DNA of 45,582 nt, from positions 1 through 45,582 of IMG/VR virus record IMGVR_UViG_3300032330_001755; one strand, 5' to 3'. The stretch's first letter is position 1. Each line of letters opens with the position of its first letter. Positions 1,174 to 45,582 of this stretch are shown here, piece after piece. The notes under the pieces are model-generated. The model had not been told where the DNA came from, searched no databases, and saw only the letters and a program-made list of their open reading frames with translations. Position numbers and translations under genes: made by a program. Origin of the DNA: a virus (Duplodnaviria > Caudoviricetes).

Positions 1174-1712
1174 TATTTAGAATTAGCATTGAAAAAATAA
1201 GGAGAATTAAGTCTAAGATTAGTCGCCTCGTCATAGCATCTTTGTGCTGCATATAAGTCAGTAGCAAAAAATATAGCTTGATTGCCAGAATCAATAGCCA
1301 CCCTTAACCTGCTTTTATTTCCAAAGAAATTATGGTCATTTATAACCAATGGATTCCCAGACAATACCTGAGTAAGTTGATAGTCAAATGTTTCATTATA
1401 TAACGTAAAACCTAATGTATATGACTTAGTTGCTATTACTGTTGGATTTGGGAGTGTAGTATCATCTACCCAATCAACTCTTACTAATAATGCATAATCT
1501 TTATTAAGTACATCAAGGGTTATTGAGCTATCGGCTAATGCCCAAACCTCATAATCTGTTGTTGTACCAATTTCTACCAAATATGCTCCATCGGCTTTTT
1601 GTAAATAAACCCTACGACTTGTAATCGCAGGGTCTATACTAGTTGATGTATCAATTATATTTATAGAACTTGGTACTCCTAATGTTTGGGAAGTACTAAA
1701 ATTTGGTGTCAT
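1173..1712 (-). CDS. Hypothetical structural protein (possible tail hub/collar-type)
   Basis: 179 aa, beta-rich N-terminus and helical C-terminus, downstream of the capsid genes. Confidence 0.5.
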   Translation of the reverse strand: MTPNFSTSQTLGVPSSINIIDTSTSIDPAITSRRVYLQKADGAYLVEIGTTTDYEVWALADSSITLDVLNKDYALLVRVDWVDDTTLPNPTVIATKSYTLGFTLYNETFDYQLTQVLSGNPLVINDHNFFGNKSRLRVAIDSGNQAIFFATDLYAAQRCYDEATNLRLNSPYFFNANSK

Positions 1713-1722
1713 CTTTTATATT

Positions 1723-1989
1723 TTAAGTAAGATAAGTAATTAAGGCTGGATATGCCGTTGCTAAGGTAGTATAATTTGTAGCACCTACAGTTATACCTCC
1801 TGAACACATCATATCAAACGATTCCCCCCCAATAGTAAATATAATTGCATCATTCTGCAAGTCAGTATCTAATACATTATGTCTAGGTGCAAATTTATAT
1901 CCACCTGTTAGGGAATAGCACTTTTCCAAATTTGAACCTGTCTTTATCTTAATCAGGTTTGTTGTCTTTGTAATTGTTGTAACAGCCAT
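1723..1989 (-). CDS. Small hypothetical structural protein
   Basis: 88 aa, Thr-rich, A-rich leader. Confidence 0.55.
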   Translation of the reverse strand: MAVTTITKTTNLIKIKTGSNLEKCYSLTGGYKFAPRHNVLDTDLQNDAIIFTIGGESFDMMCSGGITVGATNYTTLATAYPALITYLT

Positions 1990-2012
1990 TTTATTTGTTT
2001 TTAAATTTTACT

Positions 2013-2044
2013 TAAAAAATAAGGGCAGTAGTACTAATGTACCC
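2013..2044 (-). terminator. Possible intrinsic terminator downstream of the 305-aa gene
   Basis: Minus strand GGGTA...TGCCC weak stem followed by TTATTTTTT. Confidence 0.35.
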
Positions 2045-2091
2045 AACTTAGCCGTCATAGCTTTCGCTAATCACCAATTCAAAATCAAAAC

Positions 2092-3009
2092 TTATTCAGC
2101 GGTCTTTTTTTCTTTGCCGCCTTTTACTAATGACTTTAATTTTTTATATAAATCATCTCCCTTATTACCACTTGTTTGCATCCACTCTGATAATTTTTCA
2201 ATCTCATTCTTTTTGCCTGTAGGGGAAAGGTTTGTAATGGTCTGCTGATTCCCTGACCACATAAACTTATACTCCCCATGCTCAAATGAAATAAGGTCTT
2301 TATTTATTGCTTGTTTTATTAATGACTGGTACTCTATTGATTTACCCTGAACCAAGTCATTAAAGTATATTGGGTTACTGTCCGCTAACTCTTCTACTTT
2401 GTTTCTTAATATCTCTGAATTCTCAGAACTATCCCACTGCATAGCGTCTGCAAAATCTATCAATTCTGTATCTGACATTGCTTGTGCAACATTCAAAGCC
2501 TTTAATCTTTCGCTTCTTTCTGTCCTTGCTTCTCTTGCTGCTGCGTTTTCATCTATTCTTGAAATAATTGGGTGGAGGTTCTTGTCAGCAAATTTTCCAC
2601 CTTTTAATTTAGGATGCATTTCTAGCATCATTGCCATATAAAAATCATCTCTATTATCGGCAATATTTAATTTCAAAATAGCCTTTTCTGAGCCACTAAC
2701 CTTTACTTTTTTAAATCTCTCTGGCAATCCATTGTCGTTAATGAACCCATCGTCTACAAGACCTATATTTTTTGTTTTACTTTTACCGTCCCTATTTTCA
2801 TAAGAATCTTGTATTGTAAACTTAGTTGGGTCTAATGTATACATATTTGGATATACCATGCCCCCATTATATTTTTCTGGGTCTGGATTGGGTCTTGCTA
2901 TATCAAACTTGTACCTAACTGACTTACCAAATGATTCTACTTTTTGTTCTAACTCTTCTCTCAACTTAGGAGAGAGGTCATTAAAGTGTGCAAAATTTTC
3001 TAAAGACAT
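2092..3009 (-). CDS. Hypothetical protein of the crAss-like capsid module
   Basis: 305 aa, charged and helical; position shortly downstream of MCP matches a conserved crAss-like gene. Confidence 0.55.
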   Translation of the reverse strand: MSLENFAHFNDLSPKLREELEQKVESFGKSVRYKFDIARPNPDPEKYNGGMVYPNMYTLDPTKFTIQDSYENRDGKSKTKNIGLVDDGFINDNGLPERFKKVKVSGSEKAILKLNIADNRDDFYMAMMLEMHPKLKGGKFADKNLHPIISRIDENAAAREARTERSERLKALNVAQAMSDTELIDFADAMQWDSSENSEILRNKVEELADSNPIYFNDLVQGKSIEYQSLIKQAINKDLISFEHGEYKFMWSGNQQTITNLSPTGKKNEIEKLSEWMQTSGNKGDDLYKKLKSLVKGGKEKKTAE

Positions 3010-3048
3010 TTTTATTTGATTTTAAATTGGTTGAATTGGTTGAAATTA

Positions 3049-3075
3049 TGTAGGGGAAGTACATCTTCCCCTACA
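3049..3075. repeat. Intergenic inverted repeat TGTAGGGGAAG-TACAT-CTTCCCCTACA (hairpin or operator built from two motif copies)
   Basis: Perfect 11-bp stem read directly from the sequence. Confidence 0.85.
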
Positions 3076-3086
3076 ATATTTTTTTA

Positions 3087-4079
3087 TTAACTGGCACTTA
3101 CTATAGTAGCAAGAGCCGTATCTGTAAGATACCTGCTATTATCTCTTAGCAATGTGATTTGTGTTACACAAGTTGTCGCACCCACCGTAGTTGAAGGTAT
3201 AGTTCTTAAAGAAATACCATCAGTAGGGAATGCCATCGTAACTGCTGTTGTAAGCACATTTCCATTTTGTGACGCAACATTAGTTATTGAATACATATTA
3301 GTACTTGCCTGTGTTACAATATCAGACACCGAAGAACCTGTTAAGTATACAGCCCCGTTCTCTAACAATGTAATTTGAGTATTGCAGGTTGTACTGCCTA
3401 CCGTAATGGCAGGTGTAATGGTTCTTGCTATGATATTATTCGTAGGAAAAACTATTGTACTTGCAGTAGAATAAACTTGCCCATTCTCACTAGCTACAGT
3501 TGCGGTAAACATACCTGCCCCTGCATTAGCTGATAATGTCAAGTCTGCAATCAAGCTAGTTGAACAATACACTGTATTAGTTACCAAATCCACGATTTGA
3601 GTCATGTAAGGTATTGAACCACAAAACCCACTAACAGCTCTTAACATTGTATTTCTTACTGGGAATGCCCATGGAGTTGCGGTAGAAGCACCGATAGCTC
3701 TTATGGTAATACTAACTTTACCGTCAAATGTAGTGGTAGGAGTAATTGCCAATGTGCCAGTACTTGTAGTTAATATTGAAAAATCACTACTAGCACTCAA
3801 GGTGCTTGAAGTGACACCTCCAAATCCTACAGTTACTGTACCTGCTGTTCTACTTGTAATAGTGATACTAATGCTATAGTAAGTAGCCGATGTTGCGGCT
3901 AAGCTATTTGTTAAAGCAGTCGTATTCCCTGTAGTATGAGTAAATCCAGCAGCATAACTACCTGTCCATCCAGTAGATGTCCATCCTGAGCTACTTAATA
4001 AGTCAGCACCTAATGTACCACCATTAAATGGCGACCCATTAAGACCTACTACTGTAGCTGTTATTAATTTTGTTGCCAT
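3087..4079 (-). CDS. Putative capsid decoration/auxiliary protein with three internal ~70-aa repeats
   Basis: 330 aa, Ser/Thr-rich, immediately after MCP; repeated T.V..xNG...FP....R....TQI...Y units. Confidence 0.6.
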   Translation of the reverse strand: MATKLITATVVGLNGSPFNGGTLGADLLSSSGWTSTGWTGSYAAGFTHTTGNTTALTNSLAATSATYYSISITITSRTAGTVTVGFGGVTSSTLSASSDFSILTTSTGTLAITPTTTFDGKVSITIRAIGASTATPWAFPVRNTMLRAVSGFCGSIPYMTQIVDLVTNTVYCSTSLIADLTLSANAGAGMFTATVASENGQVYSTASTIVFPTNNIIARTITPAITVGSTTCNTQITLLENGAVYLTGSSVSDIVTQASTNMYSITNVASQNGNVLTTAVTMAFPTDGISLRTIPSTTVGATTCVTQITLLRDNSRYLTDTALATIVSAS

Positions 4080-4100
4080 GTTGAAATTTATTTAAAGTAA

Positions 4101-4122
4101 GTAGGGGAATTGCTTCCCCTAC
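4101..4122. repeat. Intergenic inverted repeat GTAGGGGAA-TTGC-TTCCCCTAC downstream of MCP (terminator/stabiliser or operator)
   Basis: Perfect 9-bp stem with the same arms as the 3049-3075 element. Confidence 0.85.
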
Positions 4123-4140
4123 ATTAACATTGTTTATTAA

Positions 4141-5514
4141 TTAGATAACTCTGTACTTTTGGAAGTGCTTAACCGCTAAACACTCAAGACCCTGTGCTGT
4201 TTCCCAGTCAGTATGCAATTGCATAGTTGATGAAGTTGGAATTTCAGCCAAAGCACCTGTTCTCCACTCAGTAATCATGCCATTAGAAGACTTGTTAGCT
4301 GCGCTACCCATAAATGGAGTAGGAGTGTAACGAATCTGCATTCTTGGTTGACGACCATTGTCTACAGTATCAACTTGGTCTTTTGGTACGAAGTACATAG
4401 AACCGTTAACGTCTGCAACTAATGTAGCTGAGAACAATTGTGGATGGTCAAAGATAGGAACGTGAACGAAATCAAACTCGTATCCACCATAAGAAAGGTG
4501 TTCTACGTTGAAATCAAAGCTCTTACCATCTACATTCAATCTTCTAGAGTCAACTGAAGATGAACCTAATTGCTTTAAGAACTTGCTGATTAAACGATAA
4601 GCACGACTTCCCATGAACACCATCATATCTGTAGGTGCTTTGTTAGCGATAAAGTTGTCAATGATTTCATCTAACTCTACGAAACCAAAAGTTCCAAGAG
4701 TTGTACCTGAATCATTGATACCGTAGTTGATGCAATACCAATCAAGACCACCAGTAGTTTGAATAGGCAAACCATTTGAACCAGTAAGAACTGGACTTGT
4801 AGCAAACGGAGATGCGTTTGTAAACCCTGTTGTTGACTGAGTACCAGCTAACATTTGAACAGAAATATCACCATTCAATTTGATAACCTTCTGAACTGTT
4901 TGGTAAGGGAGGATGTGGTAGTCACCACCTACATTAACTTCAATCTTAGCAACCTTCTGAACGTCAGAGATTTCATCAACCTCACGGAAGATTTGAATGT
5001 TGTTATAGTATTTAGTCAAACCATATCTACGATTTGTAGGCGCACCAGATTGTTCTGGGAATGCGTTAGAACCAAATTGAACTTTATCTCCTGCAACAAT
5101 TGTTAAATTAGTATTATCTACAGACTTTGCAGTAATTGTAGCAGTTCCTGGAGTGGTAGTAGTATCTACAGTAATAACTAATGCTTGTTTACCAGCATTA
5201 GATGCGTTTGATGTTTTAATCAAATCACCAACTCTTGGGAAAAGATATGCACCGCCTGTAATATTAAATTGTACCTGCACTGCACCTGTTGTAATACCAC
5301 CACTTGCTACTGTCGCTACCTCATAAACATCGTTGTTAACGAAGTTGTTGTAGAAGAACATTTTTGCTGGCTTTGTGCGATTTACCATCTTCATGATGTC
5401 GGTAAACGCACGGTCACGACTTTGGTCGTAAATGTTAGGGTCTATATCCCTTTGGTCAAGAAAATCAATCGCAGATACGAATGATTTAACCATTAATCCT
5501 TGTGAAACTGCCAT
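4141..5514 (-). CDS. Major capsid protein (crAss-like)
   Basis: 457 aa; portal-scaffold-MCP gene order; YYNNIQIFRE, TTGGL and FMGS motifs typical of this capsid class; codon bias of a highly expressed gene. Confidence 0.85.
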   Translation of the reverse strand: MAVSQGLMVKSFVSAIDFLDQRDIDPNIYDQSRDRAFTDIMKMVNRTKPAKMFFYNNFVNNDVYEVATVASGGITTGAVQVQFNITGGAYLFPRVGDLIKTSNASNAGKQALVITVDTTTTPGTATITAKSVDNTNLTIVAGDKVQFGSNAFPEQSGAPTNRRYGLTKYYNNIQIFREVDEISDVQKVAKIEVNVGGDYHILPYQTVQKVIKLNGDISVQMLAGTQSTTGFTNASPFATSPVLTGSNGLPIQTTGGLDWYCINYGINDSGTTLGTFGFVELDEIIDNFIANKAPTDMMVFMGSRAYRLISKFLKQLGSSSVDSRRLNVDGKSFDFNVEHLSYGGYEFDFVHVPIFDHPQLFSATLVADVNGSMYFVPKDQVDTVDNGRQPRMQIRYTPTPFMGSAANKSSNGMITEWRTGALAEIPTSSTMQLHTDWETAQGLECLAVKHFQKYRVI

Positions 5515-5552
5515 TTTAATTAAGTTTTATTTTTTTATAATTTTGTTTGTTT

Positions 5553-6785
5553 TTACCATCCACCCGAATTAAGCCTGCCATACTTAGCCATTGCTCCTGC
5601 AACTGACTTAGGCTCTTCACCTGCGGTTGAGGTTTGTTTAACTCCAGTAGGTCTTGCATTGTCTATGGGTTCAATTGCGGCTCTACTTCCCAGACTTTTA
5701 TAATGCTTAGCAAGCTCTGTAATGAATTTTTCTCCGTACTTATTAACTGTTGCTACAAGTAGTTGATGTTGTGCTTTGGGAAGAAATACTTCTTGCCCGT
5801 CCTTGTTGACTCTATCAAACATCAGTTCGCCTGTTGTATCACCATTTAATACTAAGTCTGTAATTGCTTTTGAATCTATTGGGAAGCTGAACTTGTCATT
5901 TCCCTCACCGATTGTAATTGCATTTTTACTAAGAACTTCTTTTGTGTACGGGGAATTGTTAAACTCCGTTACAATGTGCTTAGAGAAATCAGCTAAACGC
6001 TGTTCCTCTTCTTGTGCTTCTGCACTTCTGTCTGGTGCTGTGGGAAGAAGTTTCTCTTGATGCGCCTTGGCTAGTTCATCTCTGTACTTGTCTGCTTTCG
6101 CTTCTAATAAGAGCTTCCCTTCATTCGCCTCGTCTTCATCGTAAGAATTAATGTTGTATTTCTCAACAATCTCCTTTTTGTAAAGAACATCTAACTGAGC
6201 CTCGCTTGCCTTAGGATAATCTACCCGAAGCTGATGGCGCATCACTTCTTCGGCTGGCATTTGTGTGTAATCCTTACTTAGCTCGTTCAAGTATTCTGTT
6301 ACGTTTCCTTTCTCTTTCCAAGTGTTTAGGAAGCCTACCATTTTAGGGTCAACCTCTTTTAAATCCTTGATAAAAGAAATAGCCTTTTCGTCAAACCCTA
6401 ATGCCTTTAGAACGTCATCAGGTTGTTGGCTTTTTACTGCATCTTGCCAGTTTATTTCTGCATTAGACTCCATCTCTTTTTGAGTTTGGGAAGTCCCTGC
6501 TTTGCTTTCAACTGACTCGGATGTTTCTTGCTCATCTTCAGATGTACTTTCTGCCTTCGTTGGAGCAACGGGGGCGTTTCTTACCTCTGCATCAGATTCC
6601 CAAGAGCCATCTCTATTTAAACGGATTGGATTTACATCCTCACCTTCTGCACTACTTTTTGTACCCTGTCTAGCCATCATAGCAGCTATACTCATAGTTT
6701 CTGCACTTGATGCCGATTGGGCTTCGCTTGTTTCATTTGATGTCGCAGTATCTGCTTCATCCATGTCATAGAACTTTTTTATCAT
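5553..6785 (-). CDS. Putative scaffolding protein
   Basis: 410 aa, acidic disordered N-terminus, between portal and MCP. Confidence 0.65.
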   Translation of the reverse strand: MIKKFYDMDEADTATSNETSEAQSASSAETMSIAAMMARQGTKSSAEGEDVNPIRLNRDGSWESDAEVRNAPVAPTKAESTSEDEQETSESVESKAGTSQTQKEMESNAEINWQDAVKSQQPDDVLKALGFDEKAISFIKDLKEVDPKMVGFLNTWKEKGNVTEYLNELSKDYTQMPAEEVMRHQLRVDYPKASEAQLDVLYKKEIVEKYNINSYDEDEANEGKLLLEAKADKYRDELAKAHQEKLLPTAPDRSAEAQEEEQRLADFSKHIVTEFNNSPYTKEVLSKNAITIGEGNDKFSFPIDSKAITDLVLNGDTTGELMFDRVNKDGQEVFLPKAQHQLLVATVNKYGEKFITELAKHYKSLGSRAAIEPIDNARPTGVKQTSTAGEEPKSVAGAMAKYGRLNSGGW

Positions 6786-6847
6786 TGATTTGAATTTGGT
6801 GAAGTAAAAATATTAGTTCATTTTAAATAAAAAAATTTTTTCTTATA

Positions 6848-9208
6848 CTATTTTGTCATTGTTTGGGAATTGGTCTTTTGATTAGCCAACTGTTGCTTCA
6901 AGATTGACGACTGACCTGCTATGTGCGTAGAATTTTCTTTTGCACTTGCGGTATCAGAGGCTACTTGAATTTTGGTGTTATTGTTAGCCATTGCAATTCT
7001 TTCTGCTGATTCAATTCTCATTCTCTCTTTCTCTAATTCCCCTTGCACCCTAATCTGCTCTTTTTGTATTTCAAGTTCTGCCTGCATTTGAAACTTCTGC
7101 ACTTCTGATTGTTGTGCAATTTGAGCCGATTGCATATTCCCTTGCTGCTGTGCCTGTATCTCAGCCATTCTTTGTTGGGACTGTCTTTCTTTTTCTTTCT
7201 TCACCCTATACGCCCAAATCATTTGAGCCTCTTTTACGTTCTTTGTGTTTACAAGAATGACGGCATCCGCAGTTGTTAAAAATCCATTGGATATGTCCAT
7301 CTGCATCATTTGCATTAACCAAGCCTTTTGGTCTTGTGTAGGTCTTTTTTCTAGTTCTACACCGTAATCTCTCCATGCTATGTCAGGAGATATTTGCATG
7401 AATGTTAGGGAATTGGAGTTTAACGCTGGAGCGAATCCAGTAATATCCCCCATCTTTAAAGCCTGTTGCGTTCTAGTCAACATAGCCTCGGCTAATTTTA
7501 ATGATATATTTTCTTCAGAAAACGCTAAAGGATATAGTGCCTCGTTTGTACTTTGCTGTCCACTTTCGTACCCTGGTACAAGGGTCTTGGATGATGCCTG
7601 ACCTAAGGTAACATCATTGTAGCCTGTCATTTTTTCTATTGCAGATATTGTACTTATCAAGTCATTGTAGAACATTGACAGTTCACTTGCTGCTGTGTTT
7701 TCAATGGGAATCACTGGTCGCCAGTTTGCACTCTGTGGTGTGCCACCATCATTGTCACTTCTTCCCAAGAGAACGCCAGTGTCAAAAAACATTTGCAATA
7801 ATTCTTGTGGTGACATATCTTGCCCACCCTTTGTCATTGCTACTTTTTCTAAGGCAGACAAATCAATCCACCAGCCAGAAGGTACAGCTCTGTTCTTAAA
7901 GTTCTGAATCTTTAACATAGTCAACTGATAGTCGTCTATGTATGGAATTAGTCTTTCCATCATACCCTGAGCCTTCATTTGATAGAAATTGTACGCATAA
8001 AACGTATAAGATAGTCTTGTCTTTGCTTTCTTCTTTATATCGTTGGGGCGCTTTTGGTCATAGCACATACCAAAGTCATAAACCTTGTCTGTTCCTATTA
8101 CCCACTTGCATTTATATGTGTATTGGATTTTCTTTCTTGTGTACTTGTCAGATTTTTTGCCCCTTGCGAAGTCTGCCTTTCTGAAATCAGGATTTCCTTG
8201 CTCGTCCATTGTGTCACGATATACTCTATCGTTGTACGTATAAAATTCAATATCTAATACCTTACATTTAAACTTGTCGTATGGCTTCATCCATCCAGTT
8301 CCCAAACCTAACAATCTTGGATTCCCAAACTGACCTGCTATTGTAGATGCAAACTGAGTTAAGTCGTATTCTGTAAACATTATCTTACCCTCATCGTCTG
8401 TAACTGTTGCCAATTCTATTAAAGGCACATCTATTATTTCCCCAGCATGAACAATATTAGAAAAGTCAGCATTCTTATCAAATGATGTAATTACGCACTC
8501 TGGGTCTACCACTCTAAATCCTGGCTTACCATCGTTGTCTAAGTAATCCTTTACACCTGCAACACCTAAGTCAAATAAATCCTCAAATATTTTTCTTCTT
8601 TTGGTCTTGTAATCATTTTGATAAAATGCAAGATTGATTGCCATTTCAGCATCCTTGCTTCTATTAAATTGCTCCCCAAACTCCATTCTCATTTCTAACT
8701 CTTCAATGTCCACAGGGTCTTTTGAGTTAAGTGCTAACAACGGGTGACTTGCTAATTCTGGATTTTGCTGCATCATCATTTCCCTAACAGCCAACTTAGC
8801 TTTCAAGCTAGCATAATACCCGTCCATTTCTGACTTAGCTAACATATCTACAGGAGTTGCTACGATATTATAATCAGTAGCAGTTAGTCTTGATATAGCC
8901 TTATCTCTGTAGCCAGAAACAATAGAACGAATGCTCCAGTCTAAACTTAGCCATGTATTGTTGGTTGTTTCGTCTACTCCTAACCATTTCTTATATTGTG
9001 AATTTGGCTGCTTCCCTAACGCATATAGTCTAAACTTAGAATAATCTCCGCCATTACCAGAGAAGATACCTTTAGGGTAAACAAACTGCCAATCATAGTA
9101 CGCCGCCTGTGCATATTCTCTACAAAAGTCTGCGCCCTTTTTCGCAGGGTCTATATCATGATTCGGATAACTAAATTGACCACCACTAGTAATTTGTTGA
9201 TATTGCAT
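6848..9208 (-). CDS. Portal protein (crAss-like)
   Basis: 786 aa; RLYALGKQ, W..LDW, DLFDLGVA and TGYNDVTLG motifs; Gln-rich coiled-coil C-terminal barrel; follows TerL. Confidence 0.85.
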   Translation of the reverse strand: MQYQQITSGGQFSYPNHDIDPAKKGADFCREYAQAAYYDWQFVYPKGIFSGNGGDYSKFRLYALGKQPNSQYKKWLGVDETTNNTWLSLDWSIRSIVSGYRDKAISRLTATDYNIVATPVDMLAKSEMDGYYASLKAKLAVREMMMQQNPELASHPLLALNSKDPVDIEELEMRMEFGEQFNRSKDAEMAINLAFYQNDYKTKRRKIFEDLFDLGVAGVKDYLDNDGKPGFRVVDPECVITSFDKNADFSNIVHAGEIIDVPLIELATVTDDEGKIMFTEYDLTQFASTIAGQFGNPRLLGLGTGWMKPYDKFKCKVLDIEFYTYNDRVYRDTMDEQGNPDFRKADFARGKKSDKYTRKKIQYTYKCKWVIGTDKVYDFGMCYDQKRPNDIKKKAKTRLSYTFYAYNFYQMKAQGMMERLIPYIDDYQLTMLKIQNFKNRAVPSGWWIDLSALEKVAMTKGGQDMSPQELLQMFFDTGVLLGRSDNDGGTPQSANWRPVIPIENTAASELSMFYNDLISTISAIEKMTGYNDVTLGQASSKTLVPGYESGQQSTNEALYPLAFSEENISLKLAEAMLTRTQQALKMGDITGFAPALNSNSLTFMQISPDIAWRDYGVELEKRPTQDQKAWLMQMMQMDISNGFLTTADAVILVNTKNVKEAQMIWAYRVKKEKERQSQQRMAEIQAQQQGNMQSAQIAQQSEVQKFQMQAELEIQKEQIRVQGELEKERMRIESAERIAMANNNTKIQVASDTASAKENSTHIAGQSSILKQQLANQKTNSQTMTK

Positions 9209-9223
9209 TTTATTTTTGGGTTT

Positions 9224-34418: not shown

Positions 34419-34421
34419 AAA

Positions 34422-35117: not shown

Positions 35118-35129
35118 AAAAGAAAGTCA

Positions 35130-35887: not shown

Positions 35888-35895
35888 AAATATTT

Positions 35896-35926: not shown

Positions 35927-35928
35927 TC

Positions 35929-36509: not shown

Positions 36510-36512
36510 ATA

Positions 36513-37373
36513 ATGCCAAAAAGATTTACAGATACAGAAATATGGAAAAATCAAAGATGGTTTAGAAAACTATCTCCAATAAATAAATTGATATTTTTTT
36601 ACATTAAAGACCAATGCAATCATGCAGGAATTTGGAAAATAGATTGCTCTGACCTCATTGATGATTTAGGATTAGATATTTTTTCTTTAGAAAATTTTAT
36701 TAGCGAAATGAATTCAGATTTTGATAAAATAAGTGGGAATAAAACTTACAAAGAAAGAGTTAAAATAATAAAAAATAACAACCTTTGGATAACTGGCTTT
36801 ATACAATTTCAATATGAATCAAAAGAAAAAATTATTAGTGAATCGTCTTGCGTAAGAACAGCTCTTCAAATTTTAAAAGGTCTTGATATATATGAAGAAT
36901 CTATTAGTAAGGGATATGTAACTCTTAAGCAAAAAGATATAACCCTTAATAACGGTTTGGTAACCAATAAGGATAAGGATAGTATTTCTTTTAATACTTT
37001 TACAAGCAATAAATACTCTAACGAATTAATAGACTCTAATAGTTGGGAGAGTGAAAAAAAATATTTTAAAAACGATGAAGTTTATTTTTATAAAATTTGT
37101 TCAGAGTATAAATTTTCAAAAGATGAAATAAATTTAAAAATTGAAGAATTTTTAAAATCATTAGAATTAGGAGAAGATTTTAAATCTGTAAAAGAACTTA
37201 AAAGACATTTTTTAAATTGGATTAAGAAACAAAAAAAAGAAACATCAGAAAAACCATTCAATCCTCATACAGCCACTGGAACAGAAAAAGCAGAACACTA
37301 TAAAAAGATGATGCAATCATTACAAGGAGATAATAAATCTATTTATAGCAATTCTTATAGCCAAAATTTATAA
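36513..37373 (+). CDS. Putative replication initiator
   Basis: MPKRFTDTEIW...CNHAGIW N-terminus and LKRHFLNWI C-terminal domain; precedes the primase-helicase. Confidence 0.65.
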   Translation: MPKRFTDTEIWKNQRWFRKLSPINKLIFFYIKDQCNHAGIWKIDCSDLIDDLGLDIFSLENFISEMNSDFDKISGNKTYKERVKIIKNNNLWITGFIQFQYESKEKIISESSCVRTALQILKGLDIYEESISKGYVTLKQKDITLNNGLVTNKDKDSISFNTFTSNKYSNELIDSNSWESEKKYFKNDEVYFYKICSEYKFSKDEINLKIEEFLKSLELGEDFKSVKELKRHFLNWIKKQKKETSEKPFNPHTATGTEKAEHYKKMMQSLQGDNKSIYSNSYSQNL

Positions 37374-37447
37374 GATAATTAGTTTTTGGATAGTATGTAC
37401 CACTCAGAAAAAATAACGCACTAAATCGCCTTAAAATAACGAATACG

Positions 37448-39304
37448 ATGATTACGATTTTTCAGAATATATTTTCAAAAGACCCACATTACATTTCTGT
37501 TGGGGAAGCGTTGACTAGAATTTCCCAAGGCAAAAGCAAACAAAGGGTAGAGGACATAAGGAGTCAACTAGACAAGGAGAAGTCAAATAAATTGAAAGCG
37601 AACTTACCTTCAGTTTGTTTTTCGGGTAAGTTTGGGAAGAACCGAAAGGATGACGAACTTATAGAGCATAGTGGATTTTTAGTGCTTGATTTTGATGATA
37701 TTTATGAACTTAGGGAAAAGCAAACAGAGATAATTAGCCATGATTTTGTATATGCTTGTTGGGTTAGTCCGTCTGGGAAGGGTTTAAAGGCGCTCATAAA
37801 GATAGCCGATAGAACTAAGCATAGAGAGCATTTTTCTTCTTTGCAGGAGATTTTCCCTGACATAGATAAATCAGGAGCTAACCCTTCAAGAGTGTGCTAT
37901 GAGTCTTATGACCCTGAGATATACATAAATGAAACGGCTAAGGTTTTCAAAAAGACTAAAAAGACAGAAAAGATAGTAGAGCGTAAGGTTCAAGACACAG
38001 ATGATTATCAGATATTTAAGAATCTTTTAGTATGGATGTCAAATAAGGGTAACGCATTTGTGTCTGGGGAAAGGAACAACTTTATATTTATGTTAGCTTC
38101 ATCTTGTTGCAGGTTTGGTATAGATGAGTTTACTGCTGAAAATTTAATTTCTTCTGAGTTTTTAACTAATTCTGAATTTAGCAGTACGGAGTGTGTGAGA
38201 GCAATAAAGTCTGCTTACAGAGCAAATTCATCAAATTTTGGTTCTGCTAAGTTTGAAAAAGATGTATTAGTAGACAAGGTTACCAGAAAAGAAATAGAGA
38301 TTAACCAAGATATTTTTGACGAAAGCATAAGACCTCAAGATGTTATTTATGGTATTGATGTGAAAGAAAGGGCGATGGACTTATATAATCTTGGATTTGC
38401 TAAGGTTAATGGAATTAATGTTCCCGATATTGATGATAAGTTTAAGCCAAAGAAGGGTGAAGTTACTTTATTGACGGGAATTGGTAATTATGGTAAGTCT
38501 TCGTTCAAGAGATGGTATCAAGTATTTAGAACTGTTTTGTATGGTGAAAAGTTTGCTACGTTTTCGCCAGAGGATAATCCTCCAGAAGAATATTACCACG
38601 ACCTTGCTGAGATTTTATTAGGCTGCGATTGTACACCAAGAAATCCAAGACGACCTAATATAGATGTTTATCAAAGAGCATATGATTTTGTAACTGAGCA
38701 TTTCTTTTACATTTATCCTAAAAATTCAGAACCTACGCCTCAATATATTAAGCAAGTTTTTTTAGAATTGATTATAAAGGAAAAGGTTGACGGATGTGAT
38801 ATTGACCCATTTAACCAAATGACAAATAACTATCAAGGTTTTGCAGGTAGAGATAAGTATCTTGAATTTGTGTTAACGGATTTCTCAAGATTTGCAGTTT
38901 TGAACGATGTGTTTTTTTGGATAGTAGCACATCCAACAAAACTTCCCAAACAACAAGACGGTAACTACCCATGCCCAGAAGTATTTGATGTAGCAGATGG
39001 TGCTATGTGGAATAATAAGATGGATAACATACTCGTTTACCATAGACCATTAGCACAGACAGACCCACAGAATCCAATGTGCGAATTTCATTCAAAGAAA
39101 ATCAGAAGACAGAAGACAGTAGGTAAAAAGGGTGCATCTTCTTTTGAAATGAATTTCCCAACAAGAAGGTATATTTTTTTAGGTGGCGACCCTTTGCAAA
39201 AAGCAGTTAATGAAAAGCAATTAGATTTTAATTATAAACAATCTAAGATAGAAATTCCCGAACAAAAAGAATGGAAAGCTATTGATGATGAAATGCCATT
39301 TTAA
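37448..39304 (+). CDS. Primase-helicase (BT4734/VirE-N-like primase, PriCT-like linker, DnaB/Twinkle-like helicase)
   Basis: LPSVCFSGKF, LVLDFD, SPSGKGLK, SYDP; GERNNFIF; Walker A TGIGNYGKS, IDPFN, IVAHPTK. Confidence 0.85.
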   Translation: MITIFQNIFSKDPHYISVGEALTRISQGKSKQRVEDIRSQLDKEKSNKLKANLPSVCFSGKFGKNRKDDELIEHSGFLVLDFDDIYELREKQTEIISHDFVYACWVSPSGKGLKALIKIADRTKHREHFSSLQEIFPDIDKSGANPSRVCYESYDPEIYINETAKVFKKTKKTEKIVERKVQDTDDYQIFKNLLVWMSNKGNAFVSGERNNFIFMLASSCCRFGIDEFTAENLISSEFLTNSEFSSTECVRAIKSAYRANSSNFGSAKFEKDVLVDKVTRKEIEINQDIFDESIRPQDVIYGIDVKERAMDLYNLGFAKVNGINVPDIDDKFKPKKGEVTLLTGIGNYGKSSFKRWYQVFRTVLYGEKFATFSPEDNPPEEYYHDLAEILLGCDCTPRNPRRPNIDVYQRAYDFVTEHFFYIYPKNSEPTPQYIKQVFLELIIKEKVDGCDIDPFNQMTNNYQGFAGRDKYLEFVLTDFSRFAVLNDVFFWIVAHPTKLPKQQDGNYPCPEVFDVADGAMWNNKMDNILVYHRPLAQTDPQNPMCEFHSKKIRRQKTVGKKGASSFEMNFPTRRYIFLGGDPLQKAVNEKQLDFNYKQSKIEIPEQKEWKAIDDEMPF

Positions 39305-39316: not shown

Positions 39317-39493
39317 ATGAAAATTAAAAGAAAATATAATTTAACAAAACCAAGAACATTAACACATCCTCAAAATAGAATTAAACCATTTGACGAAAGA
39401 AAAGTACAAATATTTTTTTCTGTGAAAGGGAAGCATTACAAAGAAGCACAACTAATTATTTCACAATTAATAAAACAAAAACAATGGAACTAA
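39317..39493 (+). CDS. Small basic hypothetical protein (58 aa; not in the ORF track)
   Basis: MKIKRKYNLTKPR...RKVQIFFSVKGKHYKEAQLII...WN*, overlapping the next ATG. Confidence 0.45.
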   Translation: MKIKRKYNLTKPRTLTHPQNRIKPFDERKVQIFFSVKGKHYKEAQLIISQLIKQKQWN

Positions 39494-41646
39494 ACTACGA
39501 GCAATTTTTAAAAACAAAACAAAAACAACACATTTTATCAGGATTTGAAACAGATGATTTAAATGAGAATTTATTTCCCTTTCAAAGATTTATTGTAAAA
39601 AGAGCATTAAAGGCTGGGAAATATGCAATTTTTGCTGATTGTGGATTAGGTAAAACATTAATGCAATTATCATGGGCTGAACAAGTATTTAAATATACAA
39701 GTAAACCTGTATTAATTTTAGCCCCATTGGCTGTAAAAGGACAAACAATTCAAGAGGGATTGAAGTTTGGTATTGATATGTCTTTAATTGAAGTTAATAA
39801 TTATGACCAATTAGATAATATAGACACTGAAAAATATTCAGGGATTGTATTAGACGAATCAAGTATTTTAAAAAACTTTGAAGGTTCTACAAAAAAATCT
39901 ATAATAGATAAATTTAAACTTACTCCATATAAACTTGCGTGTACAGCAACTCCTTCTCCAAATGACCCTATGGAATTAGGTAATCATTCTGAATTTTTGG
40001 ATGTTATGGGAAGAAATGAAATGCTTGCTATGTATTTTATTCATGATGGAGGGGAAACAGCAAAATGGAGATTAAAAGGTCATGCGGTTGAATTATTTTA
40101 TCAGTTTATTGGTACATGGGCGATAATGCTTAATAAACCACAAGATATAGGATTTGAAATGGATGGATATAATTTACCAAAATTGAATATTGAAGAAAAT
40201 CAAATAAAGACTAAAAAACGAAATAATGGAAGTTTATTTAATGACGCTATAATATCAGCTACTAATTTTAATCAAGAGTTAAGATTAACTAAAATTGAAA
40301 GATTAGATGAAGTGGTAAGATTGGTAAATGAAAAACCTGATGAAAATTTCATTATATGGATTAAACAAAATGAAGAAGGTGAATTATTGAAAAAATTGAT
40401 ACCAGAAGCAATAGAAGTAAAAGGTTCTGATTCTGATAAATGGAAAGAAGATAAACTTATTGGTTTTGCTAATAATGAATTTAGAATATTAATTACAAAA
40501 ACAAAAATAGCTTCTTTTGGGATGAATTATCAAAATTGCAGAAATCAAATATTTGCAAGTTTAGATTTTAGTTTTGAAGGATTATATCAGGCTATTAGAC
40601 GTTCATATAGATTTGGTCAAAAAAACGAAGTAAACATTTATTTAATAACAACAGATACTATGGCTAATGTAAAACAAGCTATAGATACTAAACAAAAACA
40701 ATTTGAAATTATGCAAAATGAAATGAGTAAAGCAATTAATGCAAATCTTAATGGTCAATTAATGGCAATAGCAAATTATGATACAGAAGAAGTTAATAAT
40801 GATTATTATAAAATAAAAAAAGGAGATTGTATTCAGTTAATAAAAGAATTAGAAGACGAATCAATAGGTCTTAGTGTATTTAGTCCTCCATTTGCTGAAT
40901 TATATACATATTCTAATCATTTGGAAGACATGGGAAATTCTAAAGATTATAATGAATTTTTGATACAATTTTCTTTTCTAATAAAAGAATTATATAGAGT
41001 ATTAATGTATGGAAGAAATGTTGCTGTTCATTGTATGGATTTGCCTATTCAAAAAGGAAAAGAAGGCTTTATTGGATTAAGAGATTTTAGTGGTATGATA
41101 TTAAAGGTTTTTGAAGATGCTGGATTTGTTTATGCATCTAGGGTAACTATATGGAAAGACCCTGTTGTTGAAATGCAAAGAACAAAAGCATTAGGATTGC
41201 TTCATAAACAAGTAAAAAAAGATAGCACTATGAGCAGAGTGGGAATACCTGACTATGTAATGATATTTAGAAAAGACGGAGAAAGAAATAATCCAGTAAC
41301 TAATACTGAATTATCAGTTGATTTATGGCAAAAATACGCATCACCTGTATGGATGGATATTAATTATGGTAATACTTTGCAAGGGTATCGTAATGGGAGA
41401 GATGAAAATGATGAAAAACATATATGCCCACTACAGCTTGATACTATTGAAAGATTAATACATTTATATTCAAATAAAGGAGATACTATTTTTACTCCTT
41501 TTATGGGAATAGGGAGTGAAGTTTTTCAGGCTGTAAAAATGGATAGAAAAGGTATAGGTTTTGAACTTAAAGAATCATATTTTGATTTAGCTAAAAAAAA
41601 TCTTTCATCAATTATAGAAACTAAAAAACAAGTTCAATTATTTTAA
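39484..41646 (+). CDS. SNF2-like helicase fused to an N4/N6 DNA methyltransferase
   Basis: CGLGKT, LDESS, TATP and QAIRRSYRFGQ helicase motifs; FSPPF (motif IV), HICPLQ and PFMGIGS (motif I). Confidence 0.85.
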   Translation: MELNYEQFLKTKQKQHILSGFETDDLNENLFPFQRFIVKRALKAGKYAIFADCGLGKTLMQLSWAEQVFKYTSKPVLILAPLAVKGQTIQEGLKFGIDMSLIEVNNYDQLDNIDTEKYSGIVLDESSILKNFEGSTKKSIIDKFKLTPYKLACTATPSPNDPMELGNHSEFLDVMGRNEMLAMYFIHDGGETAKWRLKGHAVELFYQFIGTWAIMLNKPQDIGFEMDGYNLPKLNIEENQIKTKKRNNGSLFNDAIISATNFNQELRLTKIERLDEVVRLVNEKPDENFIIWIKQNEEGELLKKLIPEAIEVKGSDSDKWKEDKLIGFANNEFRILITKTKIASFGMNYQNCRNQIFASLDFSFEGLYQAIRRSYRFGQKNEVNIYLITTDTMANVKQAIDTKQKQFEIMQNEMSKAINANLNGQLMAIANYDTEEVNNDYYKIKKGDCIQLIKELEDESIGLSVFSPPFAELYTYSNHLEDMGNSKDYNEFLIQFSFLIKELYRVLMYGRNVAVHCMDLPIQKGKEGFIGLRDFSGMILKVFEDAGFVYASRVTIWKDPVVEMQRTKALGLLHKQVKKDSTMSRVGIPDYVMIFRKDGERNNPVTNTELSVDLWQKYASPVWMDINYGNTLQGYRNGRDENDEKHICPLQLDTIERLIHLYSNKGDTIFTPFMGIGSEVFQAVKMDRKGIGFELKESYFDLAKKNLSSIIETKKQVQLF

Positions 41647-41648: not shown

Positions 41649-42242
41649 ATGAACAGATTTAATTCGACAATAGTACAAAAAAAATGTAAATGTTCTGCTG
41701 ATTGCGATAAGTACCCCACATTAGGTTATAAGGGGTACTTTATTCATCACTTCCCTGGCGAAATAAAAAAACAATACAGAAACCATAAAGCTCAGTTAAG
41801 TAAAATATCAAGAGAACTACATAAGGTATCTAAGGACAAGACCAAGAGTGATTACTTAAAGATTGCTGATATATTGTTTGGGAATTGGATAAAAAAGCGT
41901 GACTCAGATAGTAATAAAAATATTACCTGTATATGTTGTGGTGGAACTTTTAATTTAAAAGATAAGGACACATCTGGTAACTATGTTGTACAGTGTATGC
42001 ACTTTGTTTCACGTGGAACATATTCCCTAAGATTCAATGAAATAAACTGCCACGCTGGATGTTGCCATTGTAATTTAAGTATGCACCTAGAACCAAGTGG
42101 TCTAACATATCAGAGATACAAAAGGTTTCTTGTTGATGCTGTTGGGGAAGAAGAGGTACAGCGAATGGAAGAGCAAAAAAGAGAAATAAATAAAATAACA
42201 GAAGCAGAATTAAAAAATATAATAGAAAAATATAAAAAATGA
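41649..42242 (+). CDS. ninG: NinG/Rap-like recombination nuclease
   Basis: FGNWIKKRD...CICCG...CMHFVSRG...LRFNEINCHAGCCHCN. Confidence 0.75.
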   Translation: MNRFNSTIVQKKCKCSADCDKYPTLGYKGYFIHHFPGEIKKQYRNHKAQLSKISRELHKVSKDKTKSDYLKIADILFGNWIKKRDSDSNKNITCICCGGTFNLKDKDTSGNYVVQCMHFVSRGTYSLRFNEINCHAGCCHCNLSMHLEPSGLTYQRYKRFLVDAVGEEEVQRMEEQKREINKITEAELKNIIEKYKK

Positions 42243-42844
42243 TAACAATAACAAACGAAGATAATATGGAACTAATGGCTCGTTATCCTGATAAATATTT
42301 TGATTTAGCCATTGTTGACCCTCCTTATGGATTAGGTAAAAAAATATATTCAGGTGGAACAAAAGGATGTAAGTTTCATACATTATTTGGAGAAAATAAA
42401 TGGGATGACGAAATACCAAGTGAAGAATATTTTGAACAACTATTTAGAGTAAGTAAAAATCAAATTATATGGGGGGGGAATTATTTTCCACTTTTGCCAA
42501 CAAGATGTTTAATTATTTGGGACAAAATGAAAGGAGATAATAATTTTTCTATGTTTGAACTTGCGTGGACTTCTTTTGATAAACCTTCTAAAATATATAA
42601 AGAGTCATCTATGGGCGAAAGAATACATCCAACTCAAAAACCAATAAATTTATATAAATTTTTAATCGATAAATACGCAAAACAAGGGGATAAAATACTT
42701 GATACTCACTTGGGCTCAGGAAGTATTGCAATAGCTTGCCATGATTATGGATTTGATTTAACAGCTTGTGAATTAGATAAAGAATATTATGATAAAGCAA
42801 TGCAAAGAATAAATAATCATATAATGCAACAAAAGCTATTTTAA
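42239..42844 (+). CDS. N6-adenine DNA methyltransferase (beta class)
   Basis: IVDPPY, WGGNYF, HPTQKP, LDTHLGSGS. Confidence 0.9.
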   Translation: MITITNEDNMELMARYPDKYFDLAIVDPPYGLGKKIYSGGTKGCKFHTLFGENKWDDEIPSEEYFEQLFRVSKNQIIWGGNYFPLLPTRCLIIWDKMKGDNNFSMFELAWTSFDKPSKIYKESSMGERIHPTQKPINLYKFLIDKYAKQGDKILDTHLGSGSIAIACHDYGFDLTACELDKEYYDKAMQRINNHIMQQKLF

Positions 42845-42892: not shown

Positions 42893-43360
42893 ATGAAACC
42901 AGAAGAAAAATTTATTAAACAACTAGAAACTTACCTAGATGATGACTTCAATGATTTTACAAAAAACAGAATTATTGGATATTTAAAAGAATATCGTGAC
43001 TCTATTCCATTTGTTGTAATAAAGCCAGAGAAAGAAAAAAAAGAATATCAAAGAATTGAAGACAGAATGAGGGACAGAATGAGAAAGCAGTTTATTACAC
43101 ACGAAGAGTTGATTATAGAAGCAAAAATTTTATGTGAAGAATATGATGTTTCTATAAATGATTTTATTGTAAAAAGAAGCTCAAGGTCAAGAAATAATAT
43201 AGGTGAATTAAGAAAAATATTTTGCAGTATAATTCATGAAAAATATTTATGTAGCAATATGATTTTGTCTGAATTTTTTAACGTACATCATTCTACTATT
43301 TCTCATTATCTGTATGGGAAAACAAGAATATCCAGAACCCCAAAAATTAAAACTAATTGA
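42893..43360 (+). CDS. Protein with a DnaA domain IV-like HTH
   Basis: SRSRNNIGELRKIFC...ILSEFFNVHHSTISH resembles the DnaA C-terminal R..R....R...DH(S/T)TV signature. Confidence 0.6.
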   Translation: MKPEEKFIKQLETYLDDDFNDFTKNRIIGYLKEYRDSIPFVVIKPEKEKKEYQRIEDRMRDRMRKQFITHEELIIEAKILCEEYDVSINDFIVKRSSRSRNNIGELRKIFCSIIHEKYLCSNMILSEFFNVHHSTISHYLYGKTRISRTPKIKTN

Positions 43361-43458
43361 AAAAAATAATAAAAGAAGCCATTGATATAATTTTAGGATT
43401 ACTAATAATTGTAACAATAGTAATAATAGTGTTTTATTTTATTTGCATAAATTATTAA
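43357..43458 (+). CDS. Small single-pass membrane peptide (33 aa, TTG start)
   Basis: MKKIIKEAIDIILGLLIIVTIVIIVFYFICINY*, overlapping the previous stop. Confidence 0.4.
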   Translation: MKKIIKEAIDIILGLLIIVTIVIIVFYFICINY

Positions 43459-43469
43459 TTCCCATACAC

Positions 43470-44882
43470 ATGAACGTATTAAGCCTTTTTGACGGAATGT
43501 CTTGTGGTCAACAAGCATTAGAAAGAGCAGGATTTAAAATAGATAATTATTTTGCATCAGAAATAGATAAGTATGCAATTCAGGTAACTATGGCTAATTA
43601 TCCAAAAACAATACAACTTGGTTCTGTTGTAGATATAGATGGGTGTGAATTACCTAAGATTGATTTATTGATTGGAGGAAGCCCTTGTCAATCATTTTCT
43701 TTTGCTGGGAAACGCAAAGGAATGTCTACAAAAGATGAACAAGAAATACTAACATTATCACATTATTTAGAATTAAAAAAAGAAGGGTACGAATTTGAGG
43801 GTCAGTCTTATTTATTTTGGGAATACATGAGGCTGCTAAATGAAACTAAGCCTAAATATTTTTTACTTGAAAATGTAATGATGGGCGAAAAATGGGAAAA
43901 AATATTAAGCAAGGCAATAGGAGTAAACCCAATTGAAATAAACTCGTCTTTAGTATCTGCTCAGAATCGCAGAAGATTATATTGGACTAATATTGGTATG
44001 CAAGCTGTTGGACTTTTTGGAGATATGGAGTCTATTATTAAACAGCCAAAAGATAAAGGTATTTTATTAAAAGATATTTTACAAGATAACCCTAATGCAA
44101 AATATTATTTAAGTGTCCAACAGGTTGATAAGGTATTGGGTAGGACGGGTGTTGACCCATCAATTGATGAACCAAAGATATTGGATGTATACAACAAAAA
44201 AATAAAGGAAGATGGTAAGCCTATAACGCTTACAGACCCTTGCCACAACAACTTGCGTTTAATAGAGCCAATAGTAGGTCAGGCAGGATATGAGAAGGGG
44301 TTTAAAGAAAACGATAAGGCTTCTACATTGTTGCAAAGAGATTATAAGGGCATGAATAATTATGGCATAAACGTGGTGTTGACACCTATGCCTGTAGATG
44401 AAAAGTATTATTTGAGCGATAAAATGATTGCTGGATTTGAAAAGCACAAGGAAAGGCATACAGAAAAAGGGACAGGTTTTAAGTGGAAGCCAAAGGATGG
44501 TAGTGAGAAGGGAAATGCACTAAGGGCAAACGCTGCACTATGTCCTACAGACAATTCAATAAAGGAAGTAAAGCAAGTCAATCAGACCAACCTTAAAAGT
44601 AATGGGGGGACACAATTATACCAACAAGATAGAATTTATGATATAGATGGAATAAGTCCTGCACTTTCAGCAGGTAAAAGTGATTTATTGATTAAAAAAC
44701 AACAGATACTTACATCAAGGATTAGAAGGCTTACCCCAATTGAATGTGAAAGATTGCAGACTGTTTCTGATAATTATACTAATCATGTTTCCGACAGCCA
44801 AAGATATAAAATGCTAGGCAATGGGTGGACGGTAGATGTTATATCGCATATATTTTCTTATTTAGATTTTCCCAAACAATAA
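43470..44882 (+). CDS. C5-cytosine DNA methyltransferase with a long variable region (ORF track start 43443; likely start ATG 43470)
   Basis: VLSLFDGM (I), GGSPCQ (IV), LENV (VI), QNRRR (VIII), RRLTPIECERLQ (IX), LGNG (X). Confidence 0.9.
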   Translation: MNVLSLFDGMSCGQQALERAGFKIDNYFASEIDKYAIQVTMANYPKTIQLGSVVDIDGCELPKIDLLIGGSPCQSFSFAGKRKGMSTKDEQEILTLSHYLELKKEGYEFEGQSYLFWEYMRLLNETKPKYFLLENVMMGEKWEKILSKAIGVNPIEINSSLVSAQNRRRLYWTNIGMQAVGLFGDMESIIKQPKDKGILLKDILQDNPNAKYYLSVQQVDKVLGRTGVDPSIDEPKILDVYNKKIKEDGKPITLTDPCHNNLRLIEPIVGQAGYEKGFKENDKASTLLQRDYKGMNNYGINVVLTPMPVDEKYYLSDKMIAGFEKHKERHTEKGTGFKWKPKDGSEKGNALRANAALCPTDNSIKEVKQVNQTNLKSNGGTQLYQQDRIYDIDGISPALSAGKSDLLIKKQQILTSRIRRLTPIECERLQTVSDNYTNHVSDSQRYKMLGNGWTVDVISHIFSYLDFPKQ

Positions 44883-44892
44883 AAAACAAAAA

Positions 44893-45246
44893 ATGAAAGA
44901 ACATTTTCAAGACAGCACATTCTCCTTAATCAAAGCATTGCACCATACAAAAATAGCAATGGATTATTTTGATGATGTTGCAAAGGGATATGAATATGGA
45001 GCAAAGCAAATAATGCTTAATTATTCATCAAAGTGTAAATGGATTTTAGATAACATAAGACACAGGCTTCCACAAGAAGCTGTAAATGAAATTGATTCTG
45101 ACATAAGAGATGCCTTATTCTTGGATGCAATAGAAGATAAGGTTATTCACTTCAGTAATTCCCAAAAAGAAACGCTAGAGAATATAATTGATTTAATGGC
45201 TAAGGGGGAATTGATAGAAATAACAGATAACATAAACCCCCAATAA
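44893..45246 (+). CDS. Hypothetical protein
   Basis: 117 aa, A-rich leader, last gene before a terminator. Confidence 0.6.
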   Translation: MKEHFQDSTFSLIKALHHTKIAMDYFDDVAKGYEYGAKQIMLNYSSKCKWILDNIRHRLPQEAVNEIDSDIRDALFLDAIEDKVIHFSNSQKETLENIIDLMAKGELIEITDNINPQ

Positions 45247-45264
45247 AAGGGGGTTTGTGTTTTT
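45230..45264 (+). terminator. Intrinsic terminator ending the right-arm operon
   Basis: ACATAAACCCCC-AATAAAA-GGGGGTTTGTGT stem followed by TTTT. Confidence 0.75.
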
Positions 45265-45362
45265 CATAGGTAAACTATTGTTTATCGTATTTTTTGGCAT
45301 ATAGCCAAATCTTTGTCAATACAACTGATATTATAAGCGAAACTATCATTTTCATTTCAATG

Positions 45363-45370
45363 CAAATATA
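45363..45370 (-). promoter_or_regulatory. Leftward Bacteroidetes -7 box (TATATTTG) ahead of a possible 26-aa hydrophobic ORF (45355-45275)
   Basis: TAnnTTTG match; ORF MKMIVSLIISVVLTKIWLYAKKYDKQ*. Confidence 0.4.
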
Positions 45371-45582
45371 AAAATATTTTTTGAAAAATAAAATATTCCT
45401 TCATTTCCCCCAACAAAAACCCACTACTATATATAAACATAGATAAACACTCCCAGCACTTCCCCCACATAAAAAACCTACTTAAGCTAAATACATTAGC
45501 AACAACATACTAATAATATTAGCATGGTTCAAATTTCCTCAGCGCCTGTTTGCCTGTCAACAATTCCCTAACATTAGCAAAC

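Follow-up and report, generated by a model that had tools for sequence, protein, structure and literature searches.

A dispersed, asymmetric DNA word kept by selection in a clade of podophages and its possible Chi-like role

A viral genome that repeats a single gapped 10-bp word throughout its length raises the question of what reads that word. The genome is the Caudoviricetes record IMGVR_UViG_3300032330_001755 (45,582 bp; 33.5% G+C content), which we analyzed over its whole length and refer to as the window; the word is TGTNNGGGAA, and contigs were the sole data type used. The word is a real, strongly selected, clade-specific DNA signal. As for its role, we tentatively propose that it works like Chi, i.e., as a stop or a hotspot for DNA end resection.

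Abundance, form, and arrangement of the word

The window contains 57 exact copies (31 on the + strand and 26 on the - strand), and all of the 31 forward and 26 reverse coordinates of the original prediction were reproduced. Among 100 dinucleotide shuffles of the window, the mean was 0.99 copies and the maximum was 5, in agreement with the roughly one copy that had been expected, and the word ranked first when gapped words with 8 specified bases were scanned without bias. The 11 dinucleotides previously listed for the NN positions all matched, as did 10 of 10 sites named as examples of one-mismatch copies (82 such sites occur in the window). As had been described, the word is found in several reading frames and both orientations, with 50 sites in coding and 7 in intergenic sequence. 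One site falls in two overlapping open reading frames (ORFs), and the coding count is accordingly 51, compared with 3.47 ± 1.66 (maximum, 10) in 1000 synonymous-codon shuffles and 0.85 in codon-order shuffles. Thus, the enrichment survives the codon-preserving null that had been named as its check.

The consensus is graded: no change is accepted at the G in position 2 or within the GGG (i.e., single changes there are at background, 0 to 3 copies), while the first T tolerates a change to A, C, or G (16, 5, and 10 copies), the second T also tolerates change (5, 9, and 3 copies), and an A-to-G change is tolerated at either A (7 and 8 copies). A spacer of 2 gives 57 copies, and spacers of 0, 1, 3, 4, and 5 give 8, 1, 13, 6, and 9. 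The core GTNNGGGAA occurs 88 times, versus 3.3 expected. The resulting density is 1 site per 0.8 kb for the exact word and 1 per 0.5 kb for the core; preferences in the flanks outside the 10-mer are weak and partly track the reading frame. The sites are as follows.

1354..45573, both strands: 57 exact TGTNNGGGAA sites; mean spacing, 789 bp; coefficient of variation (CV), 0.96 (random)
2249..37779, both strands: 31 further core GTNNGGGAA sites with another first base, at the approximate positions in the next three lines
2249, 4100, 5687, 5900, 6483, 8299, 8322, 9012, 9472, 9986
13994, 15364, 15413, 17471, 18902, 20452, 20572, 21638, 25973, 26350
26828, 29749, 29813, 30769, 32006, 33262, 34300, 34357, 34791, 37629, 37770

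Spacing is random in six genomes (CV, 0.93 to 1.17), and the sites are uniform along five records. The core sites of the window (45 forward and 43 reverse) have no polarity along the genome and no preferred orientation to transcription (36 versus 42 on the coding strand); the word is therefore neither a promoter nor a strand-polar signal, as the original prediction had argued. Two local patterns stand out from this randomness. Convergent pairs at offsets of 9 to 20 number 20 in ten related sequences, versus 2.9 expected; most of them form hairpins between genes, with loops that are often 4 nt long, and several share homology with one another. The spacers of paired sites vary (3 to 10 or more bases). 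Same-orientation pairs closer than 40 bp are depleted in three divergent genomes, both for GTNNGGGAA (2 versus 7.0 expected) and for GNNNGGGAA (2 versus 12.7 expected), whereas close same-orientation pairs of 565 control words are enriched (762 versus 466); no depletion is seen for close pairs in opposite orientation. The depletion of close direct pairs fits a polar reader or motif-anchored deletion. Convergent pairs in the window include the following.

3049..3075, both strands: intergenic 11-bp hairpin with a T-run on the + side; RNA fold z, -5.0 / -5.1
4100..4123, - strand: pair with a 4-nt loop just 3' of the capsid gene, terminator-like; z, -4.5
32879..32908, both strands: pair inside a coding region, with a homologous pair in the related genomes G001 and G414
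34791..34817, both strands: pair within ORF 34734-35117

Selection on the word and its range among phages

The proteins of the window permit TGTNNGGGAA through synonymous codons at 68 positions, and 50 of them are used, versus 2 of 39 for the reversed control word. Permitting positions are themselves denser in three motif-rich genomes (40 to 48 per 10,000 residues) than in three others (20 to 25), which suggests that the protein sequences are bent toward the word. Where the spanning residues are identical, 24 of 27 sites are kept between the window and G001 (11.1 expected) and 10 of 12 between the window and G002 (2.8 expected); comparisons with three further relatives gave 33 of 38, 7 of 8, and 5 of 7 (17.7, 1.9, and 2.0 expected), and control words were mostly near their expected retention. 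On the basis of the synonymous null, the use of permitted positions, and retention above the synonymous rate, selection acts on DNA rather than on protein, as originally claimed. Individual sites nevertheless turn over: of the 32 positions compared across 8 gene families, 11 occur in a single genome and only 1 is common to all six genomes. The word is thus a dispersed asymmetric DNA signal that selection keeps across a phage clade. Genes differ in their share of sites, as the following four illustrate.

4141..5514, - strand: major capsid gene; lacks core sites, as do 16 further copies from the clade
37448..39304, + strand: primase-helicase; 6 of 8 possible core sites used
39484..41646, + strand: accessory helicase-methyltransferase gene, skipped in the contig of a close relative; no core sites (0 of 7 permitted positions used)
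42239..42844, + strand: accessory N6/N4 methyltransferase gene, skipped in the contig of a close relative; no core sites (0 of 6 permitted positions used)

The absence of the core from 17 of 17 capsid gene copies is a weak point, since only 3 positions there permit a core site.

The word is enriched 24- to 82-fold in the window and in 16 other records or loci of the clade, some of them near-identical to one another. In a portal tree of 54 rows (quick version), this motif clade (clade A) comprises 11 rows with 100% support in the Shimodaira-Hasegawa approximate likelihood ratio test (SH-aLRT). A second, sister clade (clade B, with G410) is enriched 2.2- to 2.9-fold in GGGAA with other flanks, and outgroups show no such word. 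The words of the lineages share a core and differ on its 5' side: GTNNGGGAA in clade A, CAAGGGGA and GAACGGGA in G410 and G411 (G410, 28 versus 1.2 expected and 27 versus 0.5 expected, respectively; G411, 41 copies of CAAGGGGA versus 1.1), and bare GGGAA in L013. G413 has GGGAAGT (65 versus 4.1 expected). Exact copies number 0 to 2 in G005, G412, L309, and L313 and likewise 0 to 2 in four cultured or annotated distant relatives. The L013 portal gene holds 22 GGGAA, versus 3 in the portal gene of G005, despite 93% identity; the large terminase of L013 belongs to another lineage (38% identical). Across L013:1-4603, bare GGGAA occurs about once per 120 bp (39 versus 11 expected), a density absent from its sister G005. 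No locus with the core enriched more than 8-fold was found among 39 loci with distant terminases, 79 with related primase-helicases, and 73 with related ferritins. Four other loci (L222, L157, L252, and L254) have strong words of their own, including GCNGAAGG (23 versus 0.8), CGGCANTG (13 versus 0.25), and GTNNNCAAGG (116 versus 2.4), some of which may be peptide repeats.

Readers and roles of the word

The proposed Chi-like role would work as follows. An enzyme that resects double-stranded DNA (dsDNA) from an end would pause or stop at the word and pass the DNA on for recombination. Encounters with such enzymes would arise when the linear, likely unmodified genome enters the cell, when restriction cuts it, and when concatemers form, and each extra site, on either strand, would slightly lift the odds of repair or circularization over those of degradation. 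So small a gain per site would explain near-saturation without fixed positions, and the random spacing together with the near absence of shared positions (1 of 32) indicates that position would not matter. We infer the reader, the pause, and the benefit, setting them beside the enrichment, conservation, distribution, and clade limits of the word and the exonuclease-annealase block present in clade members. The predicted reader is, about equally, a host helicase-nuclease of the AddAB/RecBCD type or the lambda-type exonuclease that the clade itself encodes, together with its Rad52-like annealase.

Precedents come from Chi itself, the sole dispersed short motif for which we found a report of positive selection in phage genomes (PMC12315714, in the parts available). 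Chi words vary between lineages (AGCGG in B. subtilis versus GAAGCGG in S. aureus) and may be gapped, as in GNTGGTGG of H. influenzae, and phage P1 carries Chi on both strands with 31 of 50 sites on the top strand (excerpts of bioRxiv 10.1101/2021.07.08.451572). The argument of the original prediction that both orientations exclude a Chi-type signal therefore fails. As far as the available parts of the sources describe them, Chi sites in phages P1, LLS, and MD8 resemble the present word in being short, asymmetric, G-rich, top over-represented, and selected beyond codon usage, as the word is in this phage, in lying on both strands in P1, and in showing lineage variants around a 3' core. For the phage enzyme, the precedent is lambda exonuclease, a 5'-3' exonuclease of the same fold as the clade exonuclease that pauses at the strand-specific word GGCGA; the available part of PMC7496540 notes this word at one genome end and, unlike the case here, describes no genome-wide accumulation.

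Several observations favor a resection signal. The lineage words consist of a 3' core with lineage-specific 5' extensions, they switch fast (L013 versus G005 portal genes), and close direct pairs are depleted. Restriction pressure also fits: the 4-bp palindromes GATC, GGCC, CCGG, and CGCG have an observed/expected ratio of 0.0 in the window (0.08 for TCGA), with similar avoidance across the phage family, and this avoidance implies frequent cutting and heavy restriction pressure. Finally, a close exonuclease subfamily occurs in GGGAA-rich loci (9 of 9 enriched, 1.5- to 3.4-fold), and its 9 copies have a 30-residue helical insert that is missing from distant copies. The clade exonuclease is assigned by PHROG (E, 4e-43), and its model (pLDDT, 88) has a lambda-exonuclease-like fold (Foldseek 3k93; E, 2e-17); the annealase hit is weak (Pfam E, 0.013). 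Both genes lie in locus L326, which continues into them from the sequence that matches the right end of the window. The overlap of the window with L321 and L326 makes it likely that its phage carries this block just past that end. The candidate and rejected readers, with the overlap, are located as follows.

12801..13298, - strand: ferritin beside the terminase genes; rejected reader
33919..34212, - strand: small protein that heads the late arm, only in motif-bearing loci; candidate reader
42893..43360, + strand: DnaA-domain-IV-like helix-turn-helix protein; candidate reader if a protein coats the genome
45399..45582, + strand: right end of the window; matches the start of locus L326 at 96% identity

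Other results weigh against a resection signal. Seventy loci with 36 to 45% identical exonucleases have no motif enrichment (19 versus 15.6 expected). The absence of the exonuclease from the motif-poor relatives G412 and G415 to G417 was at first taken as support and was withdrawn (L313 was outside the search); this absence is unreliable because the contigs likely break at an adjoining inverted repeat. Chi-rich lambdoid phages have polar, end-clustered sites and no Rec module (PMC12315714, in the parts available), whereas the sites here are non-polar and uniform along the contigs as assembled, the clade carries its own Rec module (annealase and exonuclease), and the density exceeds that of LLS and P1 (1 per 1.9 kb) by 2 to 4 times. 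Described host Chi words are frequent in their hosts (excerpts of bioRxiv 10.1101/2021.07.08.451572), whereas the present word, at 1,250 per Mb in the window, is not enriched in 401 Bacteroidota genomes drawn evenly from the phylum of a Bacteroidia metagenome-assembled genome (MAG) (about 8 to 50 per Mb), nor in 10 genomes of another order and 55 of one family (a few genomes overlap among these sets). The missing host enrichment, the lack of polarity, the density, and the Rec module argue against a host reader and not against the phage's own exonuclease. The missing enrichment also bears out the claim that the word is not host mimicry, at least in the sampled Bacteroidota; the actual host may lie outside the sample. 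Host outliers relative to the reversed control reflected a depletion of AAGGG (TTGNNGGGAA was equally frequent or more so), a cluster of 7 sites in 60 kb of G186 was not genome-wide (95 in 3.1 Mb), and an apparent host polarity was a listing artifact, with no polarity in host G044.

The inverted repeat (about 100 bp) is found both at the early-gene end and next to the annealase-exonuclease block (L022:1-100 and L032:12865-12964; 132 bp at the ends of G412). The short repeat of G003 holds two core sites, and in G411 the block is attached at the other inverted repeat. Records classed as complete with inverted terminal repeats may thus miss the block.

The distribution of the word recalls a different class of signals, the DNA uptake sequences (DUS) of Neisseria and the uptake signal sequences (USS) of Pasteurellaceae. 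According to excerpts of PMC2397512, these occur about once per kb, are conserved, form terminators as inverted pairs, and are absent from recently acquired genes. The word matches them in density, presence on both strands, conservation, terminator-like inverted pairs, and absence from accessory genes; unlike them, it resides in a phage rather than in cellular genomes, and no uptake step is known to drive it. Given the lack of cellular enrichment in the sample, a true uptake sequence, as once suggested, is not indicated. The signal is Chi-like in its inferred role and uptake-sequence-like in its distribution, and it qualifies as neither. A broader formulation, to which we give the same tentative standing as to the Chi-like role, is that of a genome-wide tag written by the clade and read by its own protein, either as a Chi for the exonuclease or through a coat protein. 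The tag would spare or rescue the phage DNA that bears it, unlike the nearly tag-free host DNA, tag and reader would co-diverge between sister clades, and the tag could accumulate like an uptake sequence, even reshaping proteins.

A coat protein, which the original prediction had also considered, is the main live rival, if a rather unlikely one. A phage-encoded, sequence-specific dsDNA binder would coat the genome, shielding it, ratcheting it into the cell, or organizing replication or silencing; the candidates are the products of 42893-43360 and 33919-34212 or an ejected core protein. The graded, asymmetric 10-bp site would suit a monomeric binder, and the word is absent from the sampled hosts. 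The 42893-43360 product is predicted to fold like DnaA domain IV (Pfam E, 6e-4, below the cutoff; Foldseek top hit 1j1v; prob, 1.0; E, 0.11). Its helix reads HHSTI in all 6 distinct clade-A copies seen (window, G414, L031, L032, L319, and L320; 42 to 95% identity), whereas motif-poor G412 and L152 and clade-B G410 carry DHT[ST]V instead (L325 is represented by a tblastn hit, not by a row of the helix alignment). This association amounts to one clade and a single event, and the DnaA-IV-like family is broad (97 clusters with mixed DHS, DHT, HHS, and HHT helices) and was found in no cultured phage; G412, with the canonical helix, shows no enrichment of DnaA boxes. All 10 hits of the 33919-34212 product lie in motif-bearing loci, and no family matches this protein; its helix-turn-helix fold is our own reading of the sequence. 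Neither gene accounts for clade B or L013, G411 has neither, and the sister-clade variants are left unexplained. The giant virion protein has no segment common to all motif-bearing genomes. Indeed, each reader-motif correlation (exonuclease, 42893-43360, and 33919-34212) is a single phylogenetic event. The closest parallel, the stoperators of cluster A mycobacteriophages, shows many asymmetric copies and related, differing motifs in sister clades, and there motif and repressor can co-diverge; stoperators, however, lie mostly in one orientation to transcription and have a known repressor (available part of PMC6550527), whereas the word here occurs about equally in both orientations, mostly in coding sequence, and no tyrosine integrase (PF00589, the one integrase family searched for) was found in 5 related records, some incomplete. 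Canonical DnaA-domain-IV helices occur at L097:4433-4984 (Pfam E, 1.5e-16) and L087:1554-2039, whose products are possible binders of host DnaA boxes.

The remaining explanations range from improbable to negligible. That the terminase reads the word as a self-tag, allowing packaging to begin at any point on phage DNA and at none on host DNA, is improbable: the word is rare in hosts and the likely small terminase (12340-12774; nothing from Atlas) is 71 to 98% identical within clade A and 57 to 63% identical to clade B, yet motif-free phages carry similar small terminases (41 to 55%), GGGAA-rich L013 has a large terminase of another lineage, and one site per 0.5 kb would far exceed the needs of initiation. 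No better a prospect is a static or translocating host protein, i.e., a titrated transcription factor or a KOPS-like translocase. The purine-rich core and the patchy gain and loss among sister lineages would suit it; the absence of polarity in phage and host G044 and the 79, 73, and 70 motif-free loci of other phages, many of similar G+C content, would not, and a sponge should need no spread of sites through coding DNA. HIP1 is a strict palindrome with a linked methyltransferase, and Noc and parS sites are palindromes of 14 to 16 bp read by ParB-family proteins. A HIP1-like methylation mark or other modification is quite improbable despite three methyltransferase-domain genes in the window, because the site is graded and non-palindromic, two of the three genes are site-free accessory insertions, and none of the three is present in the syntenic region of motif-bearing G414 and L032. 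The asymmetry of the site and the variable spacers of its pairs likewise speak against the suggested likeness to Noc and parS, and the 'ParB-like modules' that had been proposed drew no ParB hit among 38 ORFs. For a priming site of the phage primase-helicase, which we consider very improbable, the spacing is near the length of Okazaki fragments, but a DnaB-type helicase stands in for the primase-helicase in motif-bearing G414 and L032, motif-bearing relatives have swapped the initiator, 79 loci with related primase-helicases are below expectation, and strand polarity is lacking. There is next to no chance that codon bias, dipeptide bias, or repeats produced the word as a by-product: two site pairs do fall in internal repeats of the giant virion gene, but the synonymous null, the use of permitted positions, retention, and the intergenic sites oppose this, as do motif-poor orthologues with 68 to 78% identical core proteins. 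The original interpretation thus stands as to DNA-level selection, the absence of promoter or polar behavior, and the absence of mimicry; its HIP1, Noc/parS, and uptake-sequence parts do not.

Other readers were rejected. The ferritin co-occurs perfectly with the motif within the phage family, yet it retains its ferroxidase residues, and only 17 copies, versus 32.6 expected, occur in 73 loci of other phages that carry a ferritin (72% identical in one of them). The primase-helicase has 51 to 73% identical homologues in 79 loci with 18 copies versus 32 expected. The two accessory methyltransferases are insertions without sites that a close relative skips, and the large terminase is uncoupled from GGGAA in L013. 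Two ferritin types, about 25% identical (window 12801-13298 and L042:9495-9989), lie beside terminase genes in two motif-bearing clades, and related ferritins are common in other phages.

Genomic setting and implications

The window encodes a capsid protein, a portal protein, a large terminase, and a crAss muzzle-like domain, which identify a podophage whose virion module is crAss-like; the window yielded no DNA polymerase. Its nearest cultured relatives are Flavobacterium and Cellulophaga phages (21 to 29% identity), and three of four cellular hits belong to Bacteroidota MAGs; both results point to a host in that phylum. Close relatives are present in freshwater runs X2 and X6, and the phage group likely infects freshwater Bacteroidota. 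The virion protein encoded at 13309-22797 (3162 aa) is a mosaic with segments matching different relatives and no confident Pfam domain. A cluster of glycosyltransferase-like and sugar-nucleotide-like ORFs (identified from their sequences) lies between GroES-like genes in G410, G411, G412, and G005 and is missing from clade A. L322:1-7120 is a mirror-image self-duplicate, probably an assembly chimera.

In the literature searched, in which subscription journals were thinly covered and supplements excluded, we found no report of the word in four IUPAC forms among the papers listed, consistent with the original prediction that it is not a described motif. That literature also yielded no Chi of Bacteroidota, nothing on the word in work on phage uptake-like motifs or phage DnaA-IV proteins, and no case of a self/non-self code at uptake-sequence density in a viral genome. 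If a host resection enzyme reads the word, it would reveal a Chi-type word for Bacteroidota, and phage genomes would then serve to read out words of this kind and to assign hosts to uncultured phages. If a phage protein reads it, the word would be a self/non-self code written across a viral genome at the density of an uptake sequence.

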